Virus record (IMG/VR): IMGVR_UViG_2548876938_000002
Coordinates: 1-7,478 of that record
DNA from: a virus
Lineage: Duplodnaviria > Heunggongvirae > Uroviricota > Caudoviricetes
DNA length: 7,478 bases
Direction: 5' to 3' (one strand)
Shown piece by piece: positions 1 through 7,177 of this stretch (the first letter of the stretch is position 1; every line of letters begins with the position of its first letter). The translations under genes were made by a program, and so were the position numbers. The notes below the pieces were generated by a model, which was given only the letters and a program-made list of their open reading frames with translations, was not told where the DNA came from and searched no databases.

Positions 1-720
1 ATAAACGAGCTGGTGATGTCGGTGGCGCTGACGTCATATTCCAGACAGCCACGGCGAATAACGTCTTTTGCCTTGAGCACCATTGCGGTTTTCATTTCCG
101 GCGTGTAGCGGATATCGCGCGCGGCGGGATAGAACGAGCGCACGAGCTGGAACACGCCGACACCGAGGCCGGTGGCATCAATACCGATGTATTCGACGTT
201 GTATTTTTCGGTGAGTTTGCGGATGGATTCCGCCTGGGTGGCAAAGTCCATGCCTTTCCACTGATGGCGCTCAAGTATTCTGAATTTGCCACCGGCCACC
301 ACCGGCGGTGCCAGCACCACGCATCCGGCGCTGTCGCCACGGTGTGACGGGTCGTAACCAATCCATACCGGGCGGGAGCCGAACGGATTGGTGGCAAACG
401 GCGCGTAGTCTTCCCATTCTTCCAGCGTGTCGACCATGCAGCGTTGCAGCTCCTCGAACGGGAACACTGACGCCTTGTCGTCAACAAATTCACACATGAA
501 CAGGTTTTTAAAATCGTCGGCGCTGTTTTCGCGTTTGAGCTGCTCAATGTCGAACAGCGTGCAGCCGCCTTTCAGCGCGTCCTCAATGGTGACAATCTGC
601 CGCCACTGGCCGTCCGCACAGAGAAGACCTCCGGCAAGTGCGTTATGACTGACGTCGATTTCCACGCGTTCAGCGGCGCTGGCGCGTCCCCGGTTAAACA
701 GTTCACCGGACCAGAACGGG
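1..720 (-). pseudogene. Phage terminase large subunit, C-terminal (nuclease-domain) fragment; 5'-truncated, 3' end runs off the window start
   Basis: Hand translation of the minus strand (codons aligned to plus positions 3-5, 6-8 ...) gives an open frame from 821 down to position 1 with no stop. It reads ...WIGYDPSHRGDSAGCVVLAPP...KFRILERHQWKGMDFATQAESIRKLTEKYNVEYIGIDATGLGVGVFQLVRSFYPAARDIRYTPEMKTAMVLKAKDVIRRGCLEYDVS..., which resembles terminase large-subunit nuclease-domain motifs. No ATPase (Walker) region lies upstream; the first ATG is at 779 and the residues before ~720 are antisense to the gpI fragment. The ORF track omitted it because no stop lies in the window. Confidence 0.55.
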
Positions 721-732
721 TATCTGATTGAG

Positions 733-1047
733 GTGAGGGAGTGGTGGCAACTCAATGAGGAGCCGGGGACGTTCCGCATCGTTGTTGGCGTGCTTGAGCA
801 GGGTATTACCGAGGAAATGTATCAGGAGCTGGAGCGCCTCGTTGCTGATGCAAAACCGGCGAGCCGCCATCTGACGGGACTGGCTATCAGTTTAAGTACA
901 ACCGGCAACATTTTTGCCGGTGCGGGATGCTATCACGGTGACGCCCTGACGGTTTATCCCTACACCCCGGAGGCCATTATTGTCGGAGGGGATTATTTCC
1001 CGGCCTCGGCCATTCATTTAATTGATAACCTGAGAGTAAACGCATGA
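733..1047 (+). pseudogene. I: Baseplate assembly protein gpI-like, C-terminal fragment (N-terminally truncated)
   Basis: The 104-aa ORF (VREWWQLNEEPGTFRIVVGVLEQGITEEMYQELERLVADAKPASRHLTGL...) matches my memory of the C-terminal half of P2 gpI. It starts at GTG with no ATG; its frame opens only at 649 and the in-frame residues before ~718 look unrelated. Its stop overlaps the tail-fibre start (ATGA at 1044..1047), as at the I-H junction of P2-like phages. Confidence 0.5.
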
Positions 1048-2222
1048 CAGTGAAATACTACGCCATTCTGACTAATCAGGGCGCAGCACGGCTGGCTAAC
1101 GCGACGATGCTCGGCAGTAAGCTGAATCTGACGCAAATGGCCGTTGGTGATGCGAATGGTGTCTTGCCGACACCAGACCCGGCACAGACAAAACTGATTA
1201 ACCAGAAACGCATCGCGCCGCTGAATCTTCTGAGTGTTGACCCGAACAACCAGAGCCAGATTATTGCGGAGCAAATCATCCCTGAGAACGAGGGCGGATT
1301 CTGGATCCGTGAGATTGGGCTTTATGATGATGAAGGCGTACTCATTGCGGTGGCGAACTGCCCGGAAACGTACAAACCGCAGTTGCAGGAAGGCAGTGGT
1401 CGTACCCAGACTATCCGCATGATTCTGGTTGTCACGAATACCGAAGCCATCACGCTGAAAATCGACCCGTCGGTGGTACTGGCGACCCGTAAATACGTGG
1501 ATGATGAAGTCCTGGAATTAAGGCTGTATGTGGATGACCAGATGAGAAACCACATTGTCGCACAGGATCCTCATACCCAGTATGCGCAGAAACATAATCC
1601 GACATTTACCGGAGAACCAAAAGCGCCGACGCCTGCCGCAGGAAATAACACCACGCGGATTGCGACCACTGCGTTTGTACAGGCCGCTATTACCGCTCTG
1701 ATTAACGGCGCGCCAGCCACGCTGGACACACTGAAAGAAATTGCCGCAGCCATTAACAATGACCCGAAATTCAGTACCACCATTAACAATGCGCTGTCAG
1801 GTAAGCAGCCACTGGATGAGACGCTGACTCATTTGAGTGGAAAGGATGTTGCCGGTCTTCTCGCATACCTTGGTTTGGGAGAAGCGGCTAAAAGGAATGT
1901 AGGGACAGGGGCGAATCAGATACCTGATATGGGTAGCTTCACGCTTTCTGTTTCAGGTACTGGATATCAAAAATTACCATCAGGTTTTATTCTTCAGTGG
2001 GGCTCAATCGGCGCTCCAGGCATTGCACAGGATGTAGTAACCCATTTCCCGATTGCATTTCCAAACAGATGTCTGCGTGTTTTGGTCTCACAAGACTACA
2101 CACCAGATAGCGGGGCTGTTGGTTATATTGCCTGTGCAGGTTTTAGTCCCGACCCGGTTAAATTTATATCCAGAGCCAGTACTCCTGGCCTCGGCGCTTC
2201 ATTTTTAGCGTTAGGCTGTTAA
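1044..2222 (+). CDS. H: Tail fibre protein (P2 gpH-like); constant N-terminal part 1044..~1871 fused to the currently expressed variable C-terminal tip 1884..2222
   Basis: The N-terminus ([20 protein letters not shown]...[18 protein letters not shown]...[23 protein letters not shown]...[23 protein letters not shown]) resembles the conserved N-terminal domain of P2 H. The conserved ...[24 protein letters not shown]...YLGLGE motif sits just before the crossover site, and an unrelated tip follows. Confidence 0.85.
1858..1883. other. Left crossover site of the invertible segment (gix/cix/pix/hix-like 26-bp site): TTCTCGCATACC-TT-GGTTTGGGAGAA
   Basis: Read directly from the sequence. It is a 26-bp imperfect dyad with a central TT at 1870..1871, and its right half-site GGTTTGGGAGAA is identical to the inverted half-site at 3693..3704. 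It lies inside the fibre gene at the YLGLGE codons and resembles the hix/gix pattern TTCT..AAACC..GGTTT..A.AA as I recall it. Confidence 0.8.
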
Positions 2223-2243
2223 TTTAGCTATATGGAGTGAAAA

Positions 2244-2684
2244 ATGAATTACATATATTCCGCGACTACAAACTCTTTCTATCCGCTGGAGATGAAAGAG
2301 GATTACACTCAAGCTGACTCATGGCCAGATGATGCTGTTGAAGTTGATGAGCAAGTGTATATTGAGTTTTCCGGATTACCGCCGAAAGGAAAAATCCGTA
2401 TCGCTGGAGAAAATGGTTTTCCTGCATGGTCTGAAATTCCACCACCAACACATGAGGAACAGATTGCTGCAGCCGAACTGGAAAAGCAGCAACTGATTAA
2501 TCAGGCCAACGATTATATGAACAGTAAACAATGGGCTGGTAAAGCGGCTATTGGTCGTCTGAAAGGTGAGGAACTGGCGCAATATAATTTGTGGCTGGAT
2601 TATCTGGACGCACTGGAGCTGGTCGATACTTCCGGTGCGCCAGATATTGAATGGCCTACGCCTCCGGCAGTTCAGGCCAGATGA
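2244..2684 (+). CDS. Tail fibre assembly protein (Tfa, gpG/U-like) paired with the plus-strand tip
   Basis: 146 aa, with GGAG at 2234..2237 ten nt upstream of the ATG. The C-terminus ...QYNLWLDYLDALELVDTSGAPDIEWPTPP is the typical conserved Tfa C-terminal motif. It lies directly downstream of the fibre gene. Confidence 0.85.
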   Translation: MNYIYSATTNSFYPLEMKEDYTQADSWPDDAVEVDEQVYIEFSGLPPKGKIRIAGENGFPAWSEIPPPTHEEQIAAAELEKQQLINQANDYMNSKQWAGKAAIGRLKGEELAQYNLWLDYLDALELVDTSGAPDIEWPTPPAVQAR

Positions 2685-3249
2685 CATCCGGCGCGGTGCT
2701 GGTATCTGTTGCCGTCACCGCGTCAATGTAATCCAGCACAGCGTTAAGCCGGGTTGTTTCTGCCTGCGTCAGTTTCCGCCCGGCCTGTAATTTCAGCTGA
2801 ATCAGACTAATGGAAGCCATTGCTGCATCAATCAGTGACTGGCGCTGTGCTTCTGCCGCTTCTACTGCGGCACTGTGTTGTGCCTCAGTATCTGTCACCC
2901 ATTTCTCACCATCCCATTTATCATATGGCGTTAACGGTGAAAGCGTGACATAACCGTTTTTGATGGCACCGATATAATCCACTGTAACAGCTGCGCCATT
3001 TTCGATTGAGTAAACAGTCTCATTGCGATGGTCCTCTTCATGGCTCCATCCCTTACCTGTAAATACAGCCACTTTTCCCGGAATGTTTTCGCCAGGGTCA
3101 ATACCAGTGGAACAGGCGGGCATACTTACACCAGTATTAATATATTCATCAGACCAGCCCGTATATTCATACGTTACTGCATCATAATAAAAACAACGCA
3201 TATCACCCGGCACTGTAGCCAGTCCATTTTCATCAAAAACAGGTTTCAT
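2656..3249 (-). CDS. Alternative tail fibre assembly protein (Tfa-prime), paired with the minus-strand tip
   Basis: 197 aa ending ...LNAVLDYIDAVTATDTSTAPDVIWPELPEA (Tfa C-terminal motif), with an N-terminal part resembling E. coli prophage TfaE-type chaperones. Its ATG (3249..3247) overlaps the stop of the upstream tip ORF as TAATG, indicating translational coupling. Confidence 0.85.
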   Translation of the reverse strand: MKPVFDENGLATVPGDMRCFYYDAVTYEYTGWSDEYINTGVSMPACSTGIDPGENIPGKVAVFTGKGWSHEEDHRNETVYSIENGAAVTVDYIGAIKNGYVTLSPLTPYDKWDGEKWVTDTEAQHSAAVEAAEAQRQSLIDAAMASISLIQLKLQAGRKLTQAETTRLNAVLDYIDAVTATDTSTAPDVIWPELPEA

Positions 3250-3705
3250 TATTTAGCCCTCACCAGAAAGTTAAATGCAATGTTACGTGGTCTGACGGCA
3301 ATAAAATTAACACCATCTCCTACTGAGTTACTGGTGTACTGAAATCGAGAGAAACCTGGTTGGTGTGCTGATATTCCATCGTAATCAGCAATCGCATGGC
3401 CGGACCCTTCTGGATAATTACCGCCAAATTGCGATAAAGCTGTTGCTGCCTGCCAGCTTAATAATGCTCGCCCACTGTCCGCCCCTCGCCCATCATCCCA
3501 GATACGAATGAAATCACCGCGGGCTTCAGGTAATACCAGCGAAGGAAACACTTTTGCCAGCACAGGGTAATCAGAGGCAGAAAATTTCGCCCCGTTGAAC
3601 TTCAAAAACACCATACTGGACCAGCTATCGATTACAGTATTTGGCATTGCAGCGGACGGCCAGAAGAACGGAACGCCAATAGCTGGAGCACCTTCTCCCA
3701 AACCA
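3249..3705 (-). CDS. Alternative (currently silent) tail fibre C-terminal tip, promoterless and startless, expressed only after inversion as a fusion to the constant part of the fibre gene
   Basis: The minus-strand frame reads ...IFINVGLGEGAPAIGVPFFWPS...FNGAKFSASDYPVLAKVFPSLVLPEARGDFIRIWDDGRGADSGRALLSWQAATALSQFGG...GSGHA...FNFLVRAK. The GLGE codons lie in the crossover site in the same phase as in the plus-strand fibre gene. The C-terminal part resembles the phage tail-collar fibre domain. The ORF-track Met at 3746 lies outside the invertible segment and is probably artefactual. Confidence 0.75.
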
Positions 3706-3718
3706 ACGTTTATGAAAA
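3693..3718. other. Right crossover site of the invertible segment: TTCTCCCAAACC-AA-CGTTTATGAAAA (inverted relative to the left site)
   Basis: Read directly. It is 26 bp with a central AA at 3705..3706 (TT on the other strand), and its half-site TTCTCCCAAACC is the exact reverse complement of GGTTTGGGAGAA in the left site. It lies ~55 bp upstream of the invertase start. Confidence 0.8.
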
Positions 3719-3773
3719 TGCAGAGATAACGGGCAACTGGCATCATCTCCGGTTTTTATTCAGGGGGATGCTC

Positions 3774-4367
3774 ATGCTTATTGGCTATGTACGCGTGTCA
3801 ACAAATGACCAGAACACGGAATTGCAGCGTAACGCGCTGGAGTGCGCAGGATGCGAGCGGATTTTTGAGGATAAAATCAGCGGCACGAAGTCCGACCGAC
3901 CGGGACTGAAAAAACTGCTCAGAACATTATCAGCATGTGACACTCTGGTAGTCTGGAAGCTGGACAGGCTGGGGCGTAGTATGCGGCATCTGGTCATTCT
4001 GGTTGAGGAACTGCGCGAACGCGGCGTTAATTTTCGCAGTCTGACGGATGCTATTGATACCAGCACGCCGATGGGGCGTTTTTTCTTTCATGTGATGGGG
4101 GCCCTGGCTGAAATGGAGCGAGAACTCATTGTCGAGCGGACTCGGGCCGGGCTGGAAGCGGCCAGAGCCAAAGGTCGTATTGGTGGCAGACGTCCTAAAC
4201 TCTCCACGAGTGAGTGGGAGCAGGCCGGGCGTTTGCTGGCTGCAGGGGAGTCACGTCAACGCGTGGCACTGATTTTTGATATTGGTCTGTCCACGCTCTA
4301 TAAAAAATTTCCCTCATCAGCGACAAAGAATAAATTGTGTCATCCCTTAGCCAACCGGGACAAATAG
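3774..4367 (+). CDS. Site-specific DNA invertase, serine recombinase of the Gin/Cin/Pin/Hin family
   Basis: The product MLIGYVRVSTNDQNTELQRNAL...DTLVVWKLDRLGRSMRHLV...RSLTDAIDTSTPMGRFFFHVMGALAEMERELIVERTRAGLEAARAKGRIGGRRPKL...GLSTLYKKF has the catalytic-serine motif (YVRVS), the resolvase/invertase catalytic domain and a C-terminal helix-turn-helix. It is close to the Pin/Gin sequences as I recall them. I prefer the ATG at 3774 (AGGGGGA at 3762..3768, 5-nt spacer) to the ORF-track start at 3768. Confidence 0.9.
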   Translation: MLIGYVRVSTNDQNTELQRNALECAGCERIFEDKISGTKSDRPGLKKLLRTLSACDTLVVWKLDRLGRSMRHLVILVEELRERGVNFRSLTDAIDTSTPMGRFFFHVMGALAEMERELIVERTRAGLEAARAKGRIGGRRPKLSTSEWEQAGRLLAAGESRQRVALIFDIGLSTLYKKFPSSATKNKLCHPLANRDK

Positions 4368-4426
4368 CCTGACATCTCCGGCACAACTGAAAATATCACT
4401 CACCCATTAACCACGGAGTTAAACGG

Positions 4427-5298
4427 ATGAGTGACTATCATCACGGCGTGCAGGTGCTGGAGATTAACGACGGCACCCGCGTCATTTCCACCGTATCCAC
4501 TGCCATTGTCGGCATGGTCTGCACGGCCAGCGATGCGGATGCGGAAACCTTCCCCCTCAATAAACCGGTGCTGATTACCAATGTGCAGAGCGCAATTGCA
4601 AAGGCCGGTAAAAAAGGCACGCTGGCGGCATCGTTGCAGGCCATCGCCGACCAGTCAAAACCGGTCACCGTTGTTGTGCGTGTGGAAGACGGCACCGGCG
4701 ACGACGAGGAAACGAAACTTGCGCAGACCGTTTCCAATATCATCGGCACCACCGACGAAAACGGTCAGTACACCGGACTGAAAGCCCTGCTGGCGGCAGA
4801 GTCGGTACCGGCATCAGCGCCTCTGTATTCTGGGATTTGCAGGAGTCCGGCACCGATGCTGACCTGCTTAACGAGTCAGGCGTCACTACGCTGATTCGCC
4901 GCGACGGTTTCCGCTTCTGGGGTAACCGTACCTGCTCCGATGACCCGCTGTTCCTCTTTGAAAACTACACCCGCACCGCGCAGGTGCTGGCCGACACGAT
5001 GGCTGAGGCGCACATGTGGGCAGTGGACAAGCCCATCACCGCAACGCTGATTCGCGACATCGTTGACGGCATTAATGCCAAATTCCGTGAGCTGAAAACA
5101 AACGGCTATATCGTGGATGCGACCTGCTGGTTCAGCGAAGAATCCAACGATGCGGAAACCCTCAAGGCCGGAAAACTGTATATCGACTACGACTATACAC
5201 CGGTGACCGAGCAGGAAGTCGCCGCGCTGGAACTGCCTGACCTTGTGGCGCTGGCCGGTAAGGTGGTCGGTTTTTTGTCGCCGAACTCGGTGCAGTGA
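4427..5298 (+). pseudogene. FI: Tail sheath gene (P2 FI-like) remnant: frame change near 4808 and 3' end fused near 5206 to the C-terminal codons of a tail-chaperone (gpE-like) frame
   Basis: Two overlapping ORFs in different frames (4427..4894 frame 2; 4837..5298 frame 1) both read as sheath protein ([54 protein letters not shown]... and ...[40 protein letters not shown]...[11 protein letters not shown]). Together they span ~290 codons, whereas P2-type sheaths are ~390 aa. GGAG at 4415..4418 precedes the ATG. The last ~30 codons ([30 protein letters not shown]) match my memory of the gpE C-terminus and contain the slippery heptamer. Confidence 0.65.
5271..5277 (+). promoter_or_regulatory. 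Programmed -1 frameshift slippery heptamer T_TTT_TTG of the tail-chaperone E/E' module (relic)
   Basis: TTTTTTG sits in X_XXY_YYZ phase relative to the frame ending at 5298 (codons ttt ttg = F L), about 7 codons before that stop. The -1 frame is open from 5241 to 5573 and reads [29 protein letters not shown]... This is the classic position for the tail assembly chaperone frameshift (lambda G/GT, P2 E/E+E'). Confidence 0.5.
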
Positions 5299-5326: not shown

Positions 5327-7177
5327 CCTGATGGCGGATGTGGCAGTGATATTTCACTGCCCGGTTATGAGTTTGCGCAGAAAAACTCAGAATTGCAGGC
5401 TGTGCTCGGTGTGGCAAAAGACTCCGCCGAAATGGCTGCACTACGCAAGCAGGCGCGCCAGCTCGGCGACAATACCGCCGCCTCGGCAGATGATGCAGCC
5501 GGTGCGCAGATTATTATTGCGAAAGCCGGTGGGGATGTTGATGCCATTCAGGCGGCAACGCCGGTCACGCTGAATATGGCGCTGGCGAACCGCCGCACGA
5601 TGGAAGAAAACGCCGCCCTGCTGATGGGGATGAAATCCGCCTTTCAGCTTTCAAACGATAAGGTCGCTCATATCGGGGATGTTCTCTCCATGACGATGAA
5701 CAAAACCGCCGCCGATTTTGACGGCATGAGCGATGCGCTGACCTATGCCGCACCTGTGGCAAAAAATGCCGGTGTCAGCATTGAAGAAACTGCCGCAATG
5801 GTCGGGGTACTGCATGATGCAAAAATTACCGGTTCAATGGCGGGGACGGGAAGCCGTGCCGTGTTAAGCCGCCTGCAGGCACCGACGGGAAAAGCATGGG
5901 ATGCACTCAAAGAGCTTGGTGTGAAAACCTCAGACAGTAAGGGAAACACCCGACCAGTATTTACCATTCTGAAAGAAATGCAGGCCAGTTTTGAGAAAAA
6001 CCGGCTCGGTACTGCCCAGCAGGCTGAATACATGAAAACCATTTTCGGGGAGGAGGCCAGTTCAGCCGCCGCCGTGCTGATGACTGCCGCCTCAACCGGA
6101 AAGCTGGACAAACTGACCGCTGCGTTTAAAGCCTCAGACGGAAAGACCGCAGAGCTGGTAAATATCATGCAGGACAACCTCGGCGGTGACTTTAAGGAGT
6201 TTCAGTCCGCTTATGAGGCGGTGGGGACTGACCTGTTTGACCAGCAGGAAGGCGCACTGCGTAAGCTCACGCAGACGGCCACAAAGTATGTGTTAAAACT
6301 CGACGGCTGGATCCAGAAAAACAAATCACTGGCGTCAACCATCGGCATCATTGCCGGTGGCGCACTGGCGCTTACTGGCATCATCGGTGCCATTGGTCTT
6401 GTAGCCTGGCCGGTTATCACCGGCATCAATGCCATCATCGCGGCAGCAGGCGCAATGGGGGCAATCTTCACGACGGTTGGCAGTGCTGTTATGACCGCCA
6501 TCGGGGCGATTAGCTGGCCGGTTGTGGCTGTGGTGGCCGCCATTGTCGCCGGGGTGTTGCTTATCCGTAAATACTGGGAGCCTGTCAGCGCATTCTTTAG
6601 CGGTGTGGTTGAAGGGCTGAAAACGGCATTTGCGCCGGTGGGAGAACTGTTCACGCCACTGAAACCGGTGTTCGACTGGCTGGGTGAAAAGTTACAGGCC
6701 GCGTGGCAGTGGTTTAAAAACCTGATTGCCCCGGTCAAAGCCACCCAGGACACCCTGAACCGTTGCCGTGACACGGGCGTCATTTTCGGGCAGGCACTGG
6801 CTGACGCGCTGATGTTGCCGCTTAATGCGTTCAACAAACTGCGCAGCGGCATTGACTGGGTACTGGAAAAGCTCGGGGTCATCAACAAAGAGTCAGACAC
6901 ACTTGACCAGACCGCCGCCAGAACTCATGCCGCCACGTATGGCACCGGTGGTTATATTCCGGCGACCAGCTCTTATGCAGGCTATCAGGCTTATCAGCCG
7001 GTCACGGCACCGGCTGGCCGCTCTTATGTGGACCAGAGTAAAAACGAATATCACATCAGTCTGACGGGCGGTACTGCACCGGGGACTCAGCTCGACCGCC
7101 AGTTACAGGATGCGCTCGAAAAATACGAGCGGGATAAACGTGCGCGCGCCCGTGCCAGCATGATGCATGACGGTTAA
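5327..7177 (+). pseudogene. T: Tail tape-measure protein (gpT-like), missing its start and N-terminal region
   Basis: The frame is open from 5327 to the TAA at 7175..7177. The product has tape-measure features: the core motif region ...DALTYAAPVAKNAGVSIEETAAMVGVLHDAKITGSMAGTGSRAVLSRL..., a long Gly/Ala/Ile-rich hydrophobic segment (IGIIAGGALALTGIIGAIGLVAWPVITG...) and a C-terminal domain. No ATG with a ribosome-binding site exists: the ORF track started at TTG 5393 and the first in-frame ATG at 5432 has no Shine-Dalgarno. The upstream E-prime frame is a different frame. Confidence 0.65.

Follow-up and report, generated by a model that had tools for sequence, protein, structure and literature searches.

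Whether a tail-fibre switch whose parts all look intact is a working switch, and what it can still do within a prophage marked by deletions, is the question raised by the locus described here. The window, that is, the whole stretch of DNA analysed (7,478 nucleotides), corresponds to an entire 7.5-kb draft contig, identified through an exact match to the frameshifted sheath fragment as AIAO01000156.1 of GCA_000446325.2, within which the original prediction had delineated, at positions 1044-4367, a switch of the Gin/Cin/Pin/Hin type with all of its parts intact. All of these parts were found at these positions, and the locus almost certainly represents a two-state, site-specific inversion switch driven by a serine invertase of this type and carried by a P2-like (Peduoviridae) prophage. 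The features on which this assignment rests are, in order of position:

1044..2222, plus strand: tail-fibre gene (P2 gpH-like) in the given orientation, 392 aa; open reading frame with PF12571 over residues 1-150 (E 2e-62) and PF21882 over residues 310-392
1044..1871, plus strand: constant part of the fibre, residues 1-276, outside the invertible segment; 99.3% identical to residues 1-276 of the phage pro483 fibre
1858..1883, no strand: left crossover site, TTCTCGCATACC-TT-GGTTTGGGAGAA, with the core TT at 1870-1871
1872..3704, no strand: invertible segment, about 1.83 kb from core to core; reversed in other genomes
1884..2222, plus strand: variable tip 1, 112 aa, Gp53-like_C, fused here to the constant part; PF21882 and PHROG tail-fibre C-termini
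2244..2684, plus strand: tfa, chaperone of tip 1, 146 aa; PF02413 (Caudo_TAP), E 7e-38
2656..3249, minus strand: tfa', chaperone of tip 2, 197 aa; PF02413 (Caudo_TAP), E 1e-27
3249..3692 (coding to about 3704), minus strand: variable tip 2, 147 aa, silent in the given orientation; PHROG 3100/523 tail (collar) fibre C-termini, 6e-49 and 2e-43
3693..3718, no strand: right crossover site, TTCTCCCAAACC-AA-CGTTTATGAAAA, with the core AA at 3705-3706; inverted with respect to the left site
3738..3746, plus strand: candidate extended -10 element of the invertase gene, TGGCATCAT, inferred from the conservation of TGGCAT(C/G)AT
3774..4367, plus strand: serine DNA invertase (Gin/Pin family), 197 aa; PF00239 8e-52, PF02796 5e-13, PHROG 125 DNA invertase 6e-99
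3796..3858, no strand: candidate recombinational enhancer within the 5' end of the invertase gene, suggested by synonymous-site invariance
3796-3810: candidate Fis site I, TGTCAACAAATGACC, about 98 bp from the centre of the right crossover site
3844-3858: candidate Fis site II, GCGCAGGATGCGAGC, its centre 48 bp from that of site I

The tail-fibre cassette has the predicted layout, with a constant N-terminal part outside the segment and two unrelated alternative C-termini inside it, each accompanied by its own chaperone and encoded on opposite strands. Comparison of tip 1 with tip 2 revealed no similarity (E 1.9); in Pfam, tip 2 yields a weak Collar match. The exact 392-aa fibre protein is encoded by at least 24 contigs of intact P2-like prophages, and the constant part is collinear with both orientation states in other genomes. 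The tfa ATG is preceded by a GGAG motif, tfa and tfa' are convergent and overlap by 29 nt, and the start of tfa' overlaps the stop codon of tip 2 (TAATG). The two chaperone genes also share an inverted 18-nt similarity (I10, 2594-2611 and 2720-2737), and the minus-strand ORF at 3249-3743 possesses its own ATG beyond the segment boundary.

Both crossover sites consist of 12-bp half-sites flanking a 2-bp core. The proposal of two inverted 26-bp sites holds with respect to the sites themselves and to the inversion, but they are imperfect repeats rather than perfect 26-mers, with 21/26 identical positions overall, 14/14 in the inner half-site plus core and 7/12 in the outer half-sites; the TT and AA cores are identical once the sites are aligned for inversion. 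When a degenerate site pattern (up to three mismatches) was run over the whole window, it matched at two places only, compared with 0.00 expected from 200 shuffles, and the third site that would signify a shufflon was absent from the window in this search. The exchange point lies in fibre codon L276, and the variable sequence begins at 1884 and 3692. The constant region had been described as ending at a YLGLGE motif; its extent (1044..1871) stands, but GLGE is encoded by the inner half-site and thus lies inside the segment, yet remains unchanged in both orientations. The right site begins 81 nt upstream of the invertase ATG, a distance shared by nearly all related loci, and the same switch architecture, with the right site fixed at this distance, recurs in 66 of the 73 loci compared.

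The invertase displays the expected catalytic serine and helix-turn-helix: residues R7, S9, D64, R65 and R68 are all present, the Hin DNA-binding domain matches it at E 9e-9, and M114 is wild type, Ser9 being catalytic in Gin and M114V rendering Gin independent of Fis (PMC3575834). Alignment with known invertases, suggested along with the original prediction, showed full-length identities of 78% to Gin and 85% to PinE, the identity to the pro483 invertase being 97%, and the Mu Gin structures 3UJ3/4M6F were matched over residues 1-182 (E 6.5e-93). Translation most likely starts at the second ATG (3774), because many relatives are devoid of the first. Upstream, TGGCAT(C/G)AT is kept at an equal distance in Mu, e14 and related loci, consistent with a role as part of a putative invertase promoter. 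A simple sigma-70 scan called no consensus promoter either for the invertase gene or ahead of the fibre gene, the counts of the sigma-70 and terminator scans being at or close to the shuffle expectation and hence uninformative, and a search of Rfam at gathering thresholds found no RNA family within the window.

A recombinational enhancer is a required part of Gin/Cin/Pin/Hin-type switches. It was missing from the parts originally listed, and a candidate is present inside the invertase gene. The three 6-codon windows with the lowest synonymous diversity in this gene begin at codons 9, 8 and 26, and a 17-nt block (3798-3814) is invariant among 39 representatives with DNA identity down to 67%, including Mu gin. 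Mean synonymous diversity of the 12 codons of the candidate enhancer is 0.150 versus 0.324 for the gene as a whole, with 252 of 20000 random block pairs being as low. The placement of the Fis sites at 3796-3810 and 3844-3858 is modelled in part on the arrangement of the hin and gin enhancers. In Hin, two Fis sites are located about 100 bp from a hix site, and the enhancer occupies the 5' end of the recombinase gene (PMC3798978), a geometry with which the candidate in the window agrees. By analogy with Hin and Gin, the switch described here would depend on Fis and the enhancer; for a dependence on Fis, the wild-type M114 is indirect evidence.

Evidence that the segment inverts comes from comparison with other genomes. 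In-silico inversion joins 1044..1871 to the reverse complement of 3249..3704, as anticipated, and stays in frame, giving rise to a 427-aa fibre; the predicted fusion protein is present verbatim in GenBank (MBN6452212.1). In complete E. coli genomes, the inverted junction was found in one piece in 53 cases and the given junction in 39. One related locus, L002, follows the window as inverted in silico without a break for 4096 bp (97.2% identity), with the orientation breakpoints falling within 1867-1884 and 3692-3709, and the segment is reversed in L002, L099 and L100 at 96.9-99.95% identity. Moreover, the segment is flipped between L099/L103 and L104, which do not differ at a single position in 3229 bp of flanking sequence or in the 1837 bp of the segment. 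Both orientations, for which the original prediction had suggested a check by reads or PCR, are found among genomes, including isolates with 100% identical DNA. Because such isolates differ in orientation and complete E. coli genomes contain either junction, this allele, judged from sequence comparison, switches. The statement holds for the allele, not for this individual copy, whose contig was assembled straight through both sites with no sign of a mixed population.

We propose the following mechanism. Invertase dimers would bind the 26-bp site within the fibre gene (1858-1883) and its inverted counterpart just upstream of the invertase's own gene (3693-3718), and, by analogy with Hin and Gin, the site-bound dimers would meet at the Fis-bound enhancer (3796-3858) on supercoiled DNA. 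Ser9 would then cut at the 2-bp TT/AA cores, one pair of subunits would turn by 180 degrees, and religation would leave 1872-3704 flipped. The constant part (residues 1-276) would then continue in frame into tip 1, with tfa next, yielding the 392-aa fibre of the state seen in the window, or into tip 2, with tfa' next, yielding the 427-aa fibre, so that the progeny of an intact prophage would carry two putative receptor specificities.

Several known systems share parts of this organization. The e14 P segment with its invertase PinE has the same layout (constant part, tip plus tfa, convergent tfa' plus tip', a site about 80 nt before the invertase ATG, TT/AA cores), the same 29-nt overlap of the tfa pair and a similar residence in a defective prophage; the invertase is 85% identical to PinE, tfa 60% to TfaP, tfa' 63% to TfaE and tip 2 40% to the variable part of StfE. 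By contrast, tip 1 is merely 27% identical to StfP, the C-terminus of the invertase is 13 residues longer in the window (197 versus 184 aa), and e14 is a lambdoid remnant, whereas the element in the window is built on a P2-type backbone (gpI, gpH N-terminal domain, sheath, tube, tape measure). The Mu G segment and Gin show the same logic of two fibre C-termini with two chaperones, two inverted 26-bp sites of which the right one precedes the invertase start by 80 nt, Ser9 and M114 in an invertase 78% identical over its full length, and an identical 17-nt block at candidate Fis site I in gin. However, the G segment spans about 3 kb and has TC/GA cores, S/S' and U/U' are essentially unrelated to the tips of the window (only tfa is 32% identical to U', over 73 aa), and Mu is a transposable phage rather than a P2-like element. 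The Salmonella Hin system likewise combines a serine invertase, 26-bp hix-like sites and a Fis enhancer in the 5' end of the recombinase gene (PMC3798978; a candidate in the window), but the H segment carries a flagellin-gene promoter instead of fibre exons and contains hin, whereas the invertase of the window lies outside the segment.

Closer in context are switches of other P2-like elements. Escherichia phage pro483 and other Peduovirus records with an annotated DNA invertase have the same gene order as the window (I, fibre, tfa, tfa' and tip' on the minus strand, invertase, sheath). In pro483, the constant fibre part (99.3%) and the invertase (97%) are nearly identical to those of the window, but the cassettes diverge (tip 1 53% over 68 aa, tfa 70%, tfa' 63%, tip 2 39%), and the genome of phage pro483 is complete, in contrast to the deleted copy in the window. 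By description rather than by sequence, an element of this kind, likewise in a P2-like prophage, is found in EPEC E2348/69 (Goldberg et al. 2014, PMC4272514), whose P2-like prophages were shown in 2014, by sequencing and PCR, to undergo inversion: at one locus with two variants, both orientations coexist in culture, whereas a second EPEC locus is a shufflon with three repeats and four variants, compared with two sites only in the window.

The prophage surrounding the switch is defective. Judged against the annotated intact prophages L001, L013 and L105, the contig carries four internal deletions, affecting the terminase-to-gpI region, the sheath, the tube and the 5' part of the tape measure; the first of these, of about 9.5 kb, runs from inside the terminase gene to inside gpI. 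The sheath is both frameshifted and deleted, the tube is absent, the tape measure is truncated, and there are no baseplate or head genes upstream. Despite these losses, the P2 (Peduoviridae) gene order is kept, from the leftward terminase to I, H, G, sheath, tube, E/E', tape measure and U, and the Pfam matches in the window comprise Tail_P2_I, sheath, PhageMin_Tail and Phage_P2_GpU. A tailocin was considered and rejected in view of the frameshifted, deleted sheath and the missing tube. Sequences flanking the deletions match an intact relative at 99-100% identity, which makes the deletions look recent. Since an intact prophage is 100% identical over positions 721-4807, the intactness of the switch says nothing on selection. 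The deletions might be draft-assembly errors, in which case the caveat of a defective prophage would fall, whereas the switch would still be identified as such. No exact match to the 716/717 deletion junction turned up when one genome per species was searched. By analogy with P2, the lost terminase-gpI region presumably carried the V-W-J-I-H-G late promoter. Fibre expression from this copy is not supported: contrary to the claim that tip 1 and tfa are expressed, the region of the P2 late promoter is deleted and the sheath, tube and tape-measure genes are broken. Because of the four deletions, there is no virion from this copy whose host range could be altered, although the segment may still flip.

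This context invites the reading that the locus is a frozen relic of very recent prophage decay, in which the invertase is not, or only weakly, made, the segment is locked and nothing is expressed. Such a state would fit the four deletions and the frameshift, the loss of the region with the fibre-operon late promoter in P2, the absence of a promoter call in the simple sigma-70 scan and a contig assembled unbroken across both sites, and the identity of 721-4807 to an intact prophage deprives intactness of weight on selection. We nevertheless consider it unlikely, given that intact prophages have the same invertase gene, upstream region and candidate enhancer down to the last base, that near-identical alleles (99.1-99.95%) are found in both orientations and that in K-12 cultures the P segment of e14, likewise defective, continues to invert (PMC4272514).

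Distinctly less probable is a switch domesticated by the host and kept for the benefit of the cell, which, if true, would provide a phase-variable, fibre-derived receptor-blocking protein or a spare invertase acting in trans to flip other segments of the genome. This reading starts from the unaltered state of the switch in a copy stripped of head, baseplate, tube and sheath functions. The identities to TfaE (63%), StfE (40%) and PinE (85%) speak in its favour, as do the ATG of the minus-strand ORF 3249-3743 outside the segment and the reports on e14, where PinQ-driven inversion of the P segment blocks T2 adsorption and fibre-derived receptor blocking is described for PinQ and StfE2 (PMC12529663). 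Yet there is no sign of selection in a switch identical to that of intact prophages, the deletions look recent with flanks 99-100% identical to the intact relative, and the simple scan called no promoter for the fibre gene. Finally, RecA-mediated general recombination through short inverted homologies, rather than the invertase, as the source of both orientations was considered and rejected as highly implausible: the segment ends do have an identical 14-bp stretch and the tfa genes their inverted 18-nt similarity, but 14 bp is far under the length that RecA uses efficiently, the breakpoints fall inside the 26-bp sites in every case examined, and a dedicated invertase with a conserved candidate enhancer adjoins the segment.

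The serine invertase switch favoured here is an ordinary, already known one, as the original prediction had also recognized in assigning it to a well-known family; since the mechanism is in the textbooks and is already shown to operate in this prophage family (PMC4272514), the finding carries little weight as a discovery. Its practical implications concern the handling of such loci. The deleted context illustrates that a working phage cannot be deduced from a switch that looks intact, and host-range prediction for P2-like prophages must weigh both tips. Annotation pipelines call the silent tip an ‘incomplete’ pseudogene; where the segment is flipped, they break the 427-aa fibre up into pieces. 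In assemblies, contigs can stop exactly at the 2-bp core.

We consider the region at 1044-4367 to be an inversion switch of an already known kind, the allele of which is present in public annotated genomes; the original prediction, which named a Gin/Cin/Pin/Hin-type switch and claimed no novelty for it, is confirmed and supported in its parts and in its reading. The gene content, taken from the ORF listing and Pfam scans, is set out below with the recombination sites and the defects discussed further on. Among annotated records, the window is best matched by P2-like prophages and Peduovirus phages that share its gene order and have a 'recombinase family protein' or 'DNA invertase' placed after the fibre cassette and before the sheath gene.

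Features of the window
1-716, minus strand: fragment of the terminase ATPase gene, 100% identical to annotated terminase genes
716/717-720: junction of a deletion of ~9.5 kb, starting within the terminase gene and ending within gpI
to 1047: last third of a P2 gpI-type gene
1044-2222, plus strand: fibre gene, 392 aa, with an N-terminal P2-type fibre domain (PF12571, 2e-62) and a C-terminal Gp53-like tip (PF21882)
1858-1883: left crossover site, 26 bp, TTCTCGCATACC-TT-GGTTTGGGAGAA
2244-2684, plus strand: Caudo_TAP chaperone (tfa)
2656-3249, minus strand: second Caudo_TAP chaperone (tfa')
3249-~3704, minus strand: second fibre C-terminus (tip 2)
3693-3718: right crossover site, 26 bp, TTCTCCCAAACC-AA-CGTTTATGAAAA in plus-strand reading
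3768/3774-4367: resolvase-family recombinase with an HTH_7 domain
3796-3810 and 3844-3858: candidate Fis 15-mers, centres 48 bp apart
right of the recombinase: pieces of the sheath, tape-measure and gpU genes
~4806-4811: 1-nt loss at 4808 and 327-bp deletion in the sheath gene
5204/5205: deletion of 852 bp; sheath 3' end, tube gene and start of the next gene gone
5358-5363: deletion of 707 bp into the tape-measure gene

The top-scoring inverted repeat of the window, 1858-1889 with 3687-3718, contains the two inverted 26-bp sites, which exist as predicted, although imperfectly: they are identical at 21 of 26 positions in inverted alignment, the inner half-sites and 2-bp cores agreeing at all 14 positions and the outer half-sites at 7 of 12. 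A degenerate site pattern, allowing up to three mismatches, occurs at two places in the window, both of them the crossover sites, and at none in 200 shuffles. A third copy of the inner half-site was sought in the window and not found; since the inner half-site has no further copy, a shufflon was rejected in favour of a two-state switch. A small correction to the predicted end of the fibre constant region at GLGE is that these residues are coded by the inner half-site. The two tips are unrelated (E 1.9) and lie on opposite strands, each with its own chaperone, as had been proposed; each hits tail-fibre PHROG families at their C-terminal end, and the likeness between tfa and tfa' is confined to the last ~72 residues (38% identity).

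Five lines of public data show, at the sequence level, that inversion of the segment happens. In silico, inversion of 1872-3704 preserves the frame and yields a 427-aa fibre, so that the predicted join of 1044..1871 to the reverse complement of 3249..3704 holds and has natural examples, the exact protein being present in GenBank (MBN6452212.1). With a 600-nt query, the inverted junction is unbroken in 53 complete Escherichia coli genomes and the given junction in 39. Over 4096 bp the in-silico inverted window runs collinear with one inverted-state genome (L002, CP058574) at 97.2%, whereas the uninverted window splits into three alignment pieces against it, the middle one reversed, with overlaps at the two crossover sites (1867-1884 and 3692-3709). 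The segment of another locus (L100) lies in the opposite orientation and differs from the window's by one mismatch in 1840 nt. Finally, among three assemblies with neighbouring accession numbers, two loci (L099 and L103) have one orientation and one (L104) the other, with no differences across 3229 bp of left flank and the 1837-bp segment, and therefore the flip occurred without accompanying substitution. Inversion in a P2-like prophage has been demonstrated directly by paired-end sequencing and PCR in EPEC E2348/69 (PMC4272514).

In the draft assemblies of L103 and L104 (GCA_021080205.1 and GCA_021081865.1), the 2-bp core of the right site (window 3705/3706) is precisely where one contig ends and another begins. 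Such a break would be expected from an assembly-graph branch in a mixed-orientation culture; alternatively, it may mark the boundary of a repeat common to a second prophage.

The layout was checked in the 73 related loci for which 2.5 kb or more of upstream sequence is available. In 66 of them there are two sites and no more, with cores TT and AA; the distance from the start of the right site to the invertase ATG is 81 nt, rarely 80, and the segment measures about 1.4 to 2.6 kb. Similarity between loci stops exactly at the inner half-site. The cassette is, judging by these alignments, a module bounded by the crossover sites that moves between P2-like backbones, because the segment of one locus (L097, 3532-5380 against window 1870-3718) is 99.7% identical between flanks of 79-84%; in that backbone the fibre has 501 aa and is about 79% identical in its constant part, and the 188-aa invertase region is about 84% identical. 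The GC content of 0.43-0.47 in the cassette (1900-2400 and 3000-3450, the tips and chaperone 5' parts), against 0.53-0.59 in the flanks, is consistent with horizontal exchange. The closest cassette by sequence is the e14 P segment, with identities of 60% (tfa to TfaP), 63% (tfa' to TfaE) and 40% (tip 2 to StfE).

The invertase (197 aa) aligns with serine invertases, and the failure to align that was to count against the switch is clearly absent: residues 1-182 match crystallised Mu Gin (3UJ3, 4M6F; E 6.5e-93), with 78% identity to Gin and 85% to PinE of e14. Its start is probably at 3774, because the first ATG is missing in many relatives. Both Ser9, the phosphoserine-link residue of Gin, and the wild-type Met114, the M114V change of which frees Gin from Fis, are kept (PMC3575834).

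The sites, tips, chaperones and invertase of the predicted parts list all stand, and what the list missed is the enhancer, a candidate for which is seen at 3796-3858. Gin/Hin-family invertases require a Fis-bound enhancer. From 94 related invertase genes (80 viral contigs together with the annotated loci and those of Mu and e14) we chose 39 representatives, 67-98% identical to one another in DNA, and computed synonymous diversity per codon. The three lowest 6-codon windows of the whole gene begin at codons 9, 8 and 26, and the 17 nt TCAACAAATGACCAGAA (3798-3814) are invariant in 39/39 representatives, Mu gin among them. The 12 codons beneath the two predicted Fis sites have a mean synonymous diversity of 0.150, the gene mean being 0.324; a value as low was reached by 252 of 20000 random block pairs. 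This conservation supports a putative enhancer within the invertase gene, the 15-mers being candidate Fis sites placed partly after the hin and gin enhancers. The right crossover site has its centre ~98 bp away from the first 15-mer; the Hin enhancer comprises two Fis sites, about 100 bp from one hix site (PMC3798978).

By homology, invertase dimers would bind both crossover sites and synapse on the Fis-bound enhancer, conserved here in sequence, on supercoiled DNA; Ser9 would cut at the 2-bp cores, with subunit rotation and religation to follow, as in Gin and Hin. The outcome would be an in-frame exchange of the fibre C-terminus and downstream chaperone, the frame, products and both natural states of which are observed, and receptor specificity may then change, as in Mu, P1 and related systems.

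The window is an entire 7478-bp draft contig (AIAO01000156.1, GCA_000446325.2), identical to an intact prophage (L013, GCA_036294505.1) over 721-4807 and 99-100% identical to it between the deletions. Called against this and other intact prophages, the four deletions, with 5-7 nt microhomologies at their junctions, could be either very recent decay or a draft-assembly artefact. In P2, the late promoter that drives the fibre genes lies upstream of V, and the equivalent region is deleted in the window. Because this region is lost and the scan called no consensus promoter ahead of 1044, the assertion that tip 1 and tfa are expressed is unsupported for the window copy, for the virions of which a host-range effect is impossible. 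As intact prophages carry an identical switch, its intact state here is no evidence of selection. We regard it as unlikely that the switch is a frozen relic that no longer flips in the source strain. A domesticated role, either trans-action on other segments or a receptor-blocking defence like that reported for e14 PinQ/StfE2 (PMC12529663), is improbable, and inversion mediated by RecA, rather than by the invertase at its two sites, has a nearly negligible chance of being correct.

The chaperone genes are convergent with a 29-nt overlap (2656-2684), both C-termini being coded by the same bases on opposite strands, and tfaP/tfaE of e14 overlap likewise by 29 nt (L006 3518-3546); an inverted similarity (I10, 2594-2611/2720-2737) corresponds to the LDY(L/I)DA motif shared by both chaperones. 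The silent-tip ORF (3249-3746, minus strand) starts at its own ATG (3743/3746) outside the segment, crosses the right crossover site and is called as a 164-aa CDS by gene callers; translation from this ATG looks unlikely, because GGAG abuts it with almost no spacing. In the opposite orientation, tip 1 occupies the silent position and is annotated 'gp53-like domain-containing protein'. In two inverted-state genomes (L002 and L003, both 3473-4756), the NCBI pipeline splits the fibre into two 'incomplete' pseudogene fragments, and in L099 and L100 other gene callers annotate one uninterrupted fibre of 427 aa at this position. Synonymous diversity is low again at invertase codons 104-113 (~4083-4112), in the helix-E region around Met114 (about 0.10 in 6-codon windows 108-110); the enhancer does not explain this, and recombination history or some other constraint could be the cause. 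The motif TGGCAT(C/G)AT (3738-3746), which lies immediately outside the right crossover site and keeps its spacing from the invertase ATG in about 70 related loci as well as in Mu and e14, is a possible candidate for the extended -10 element of the invertase promoter.
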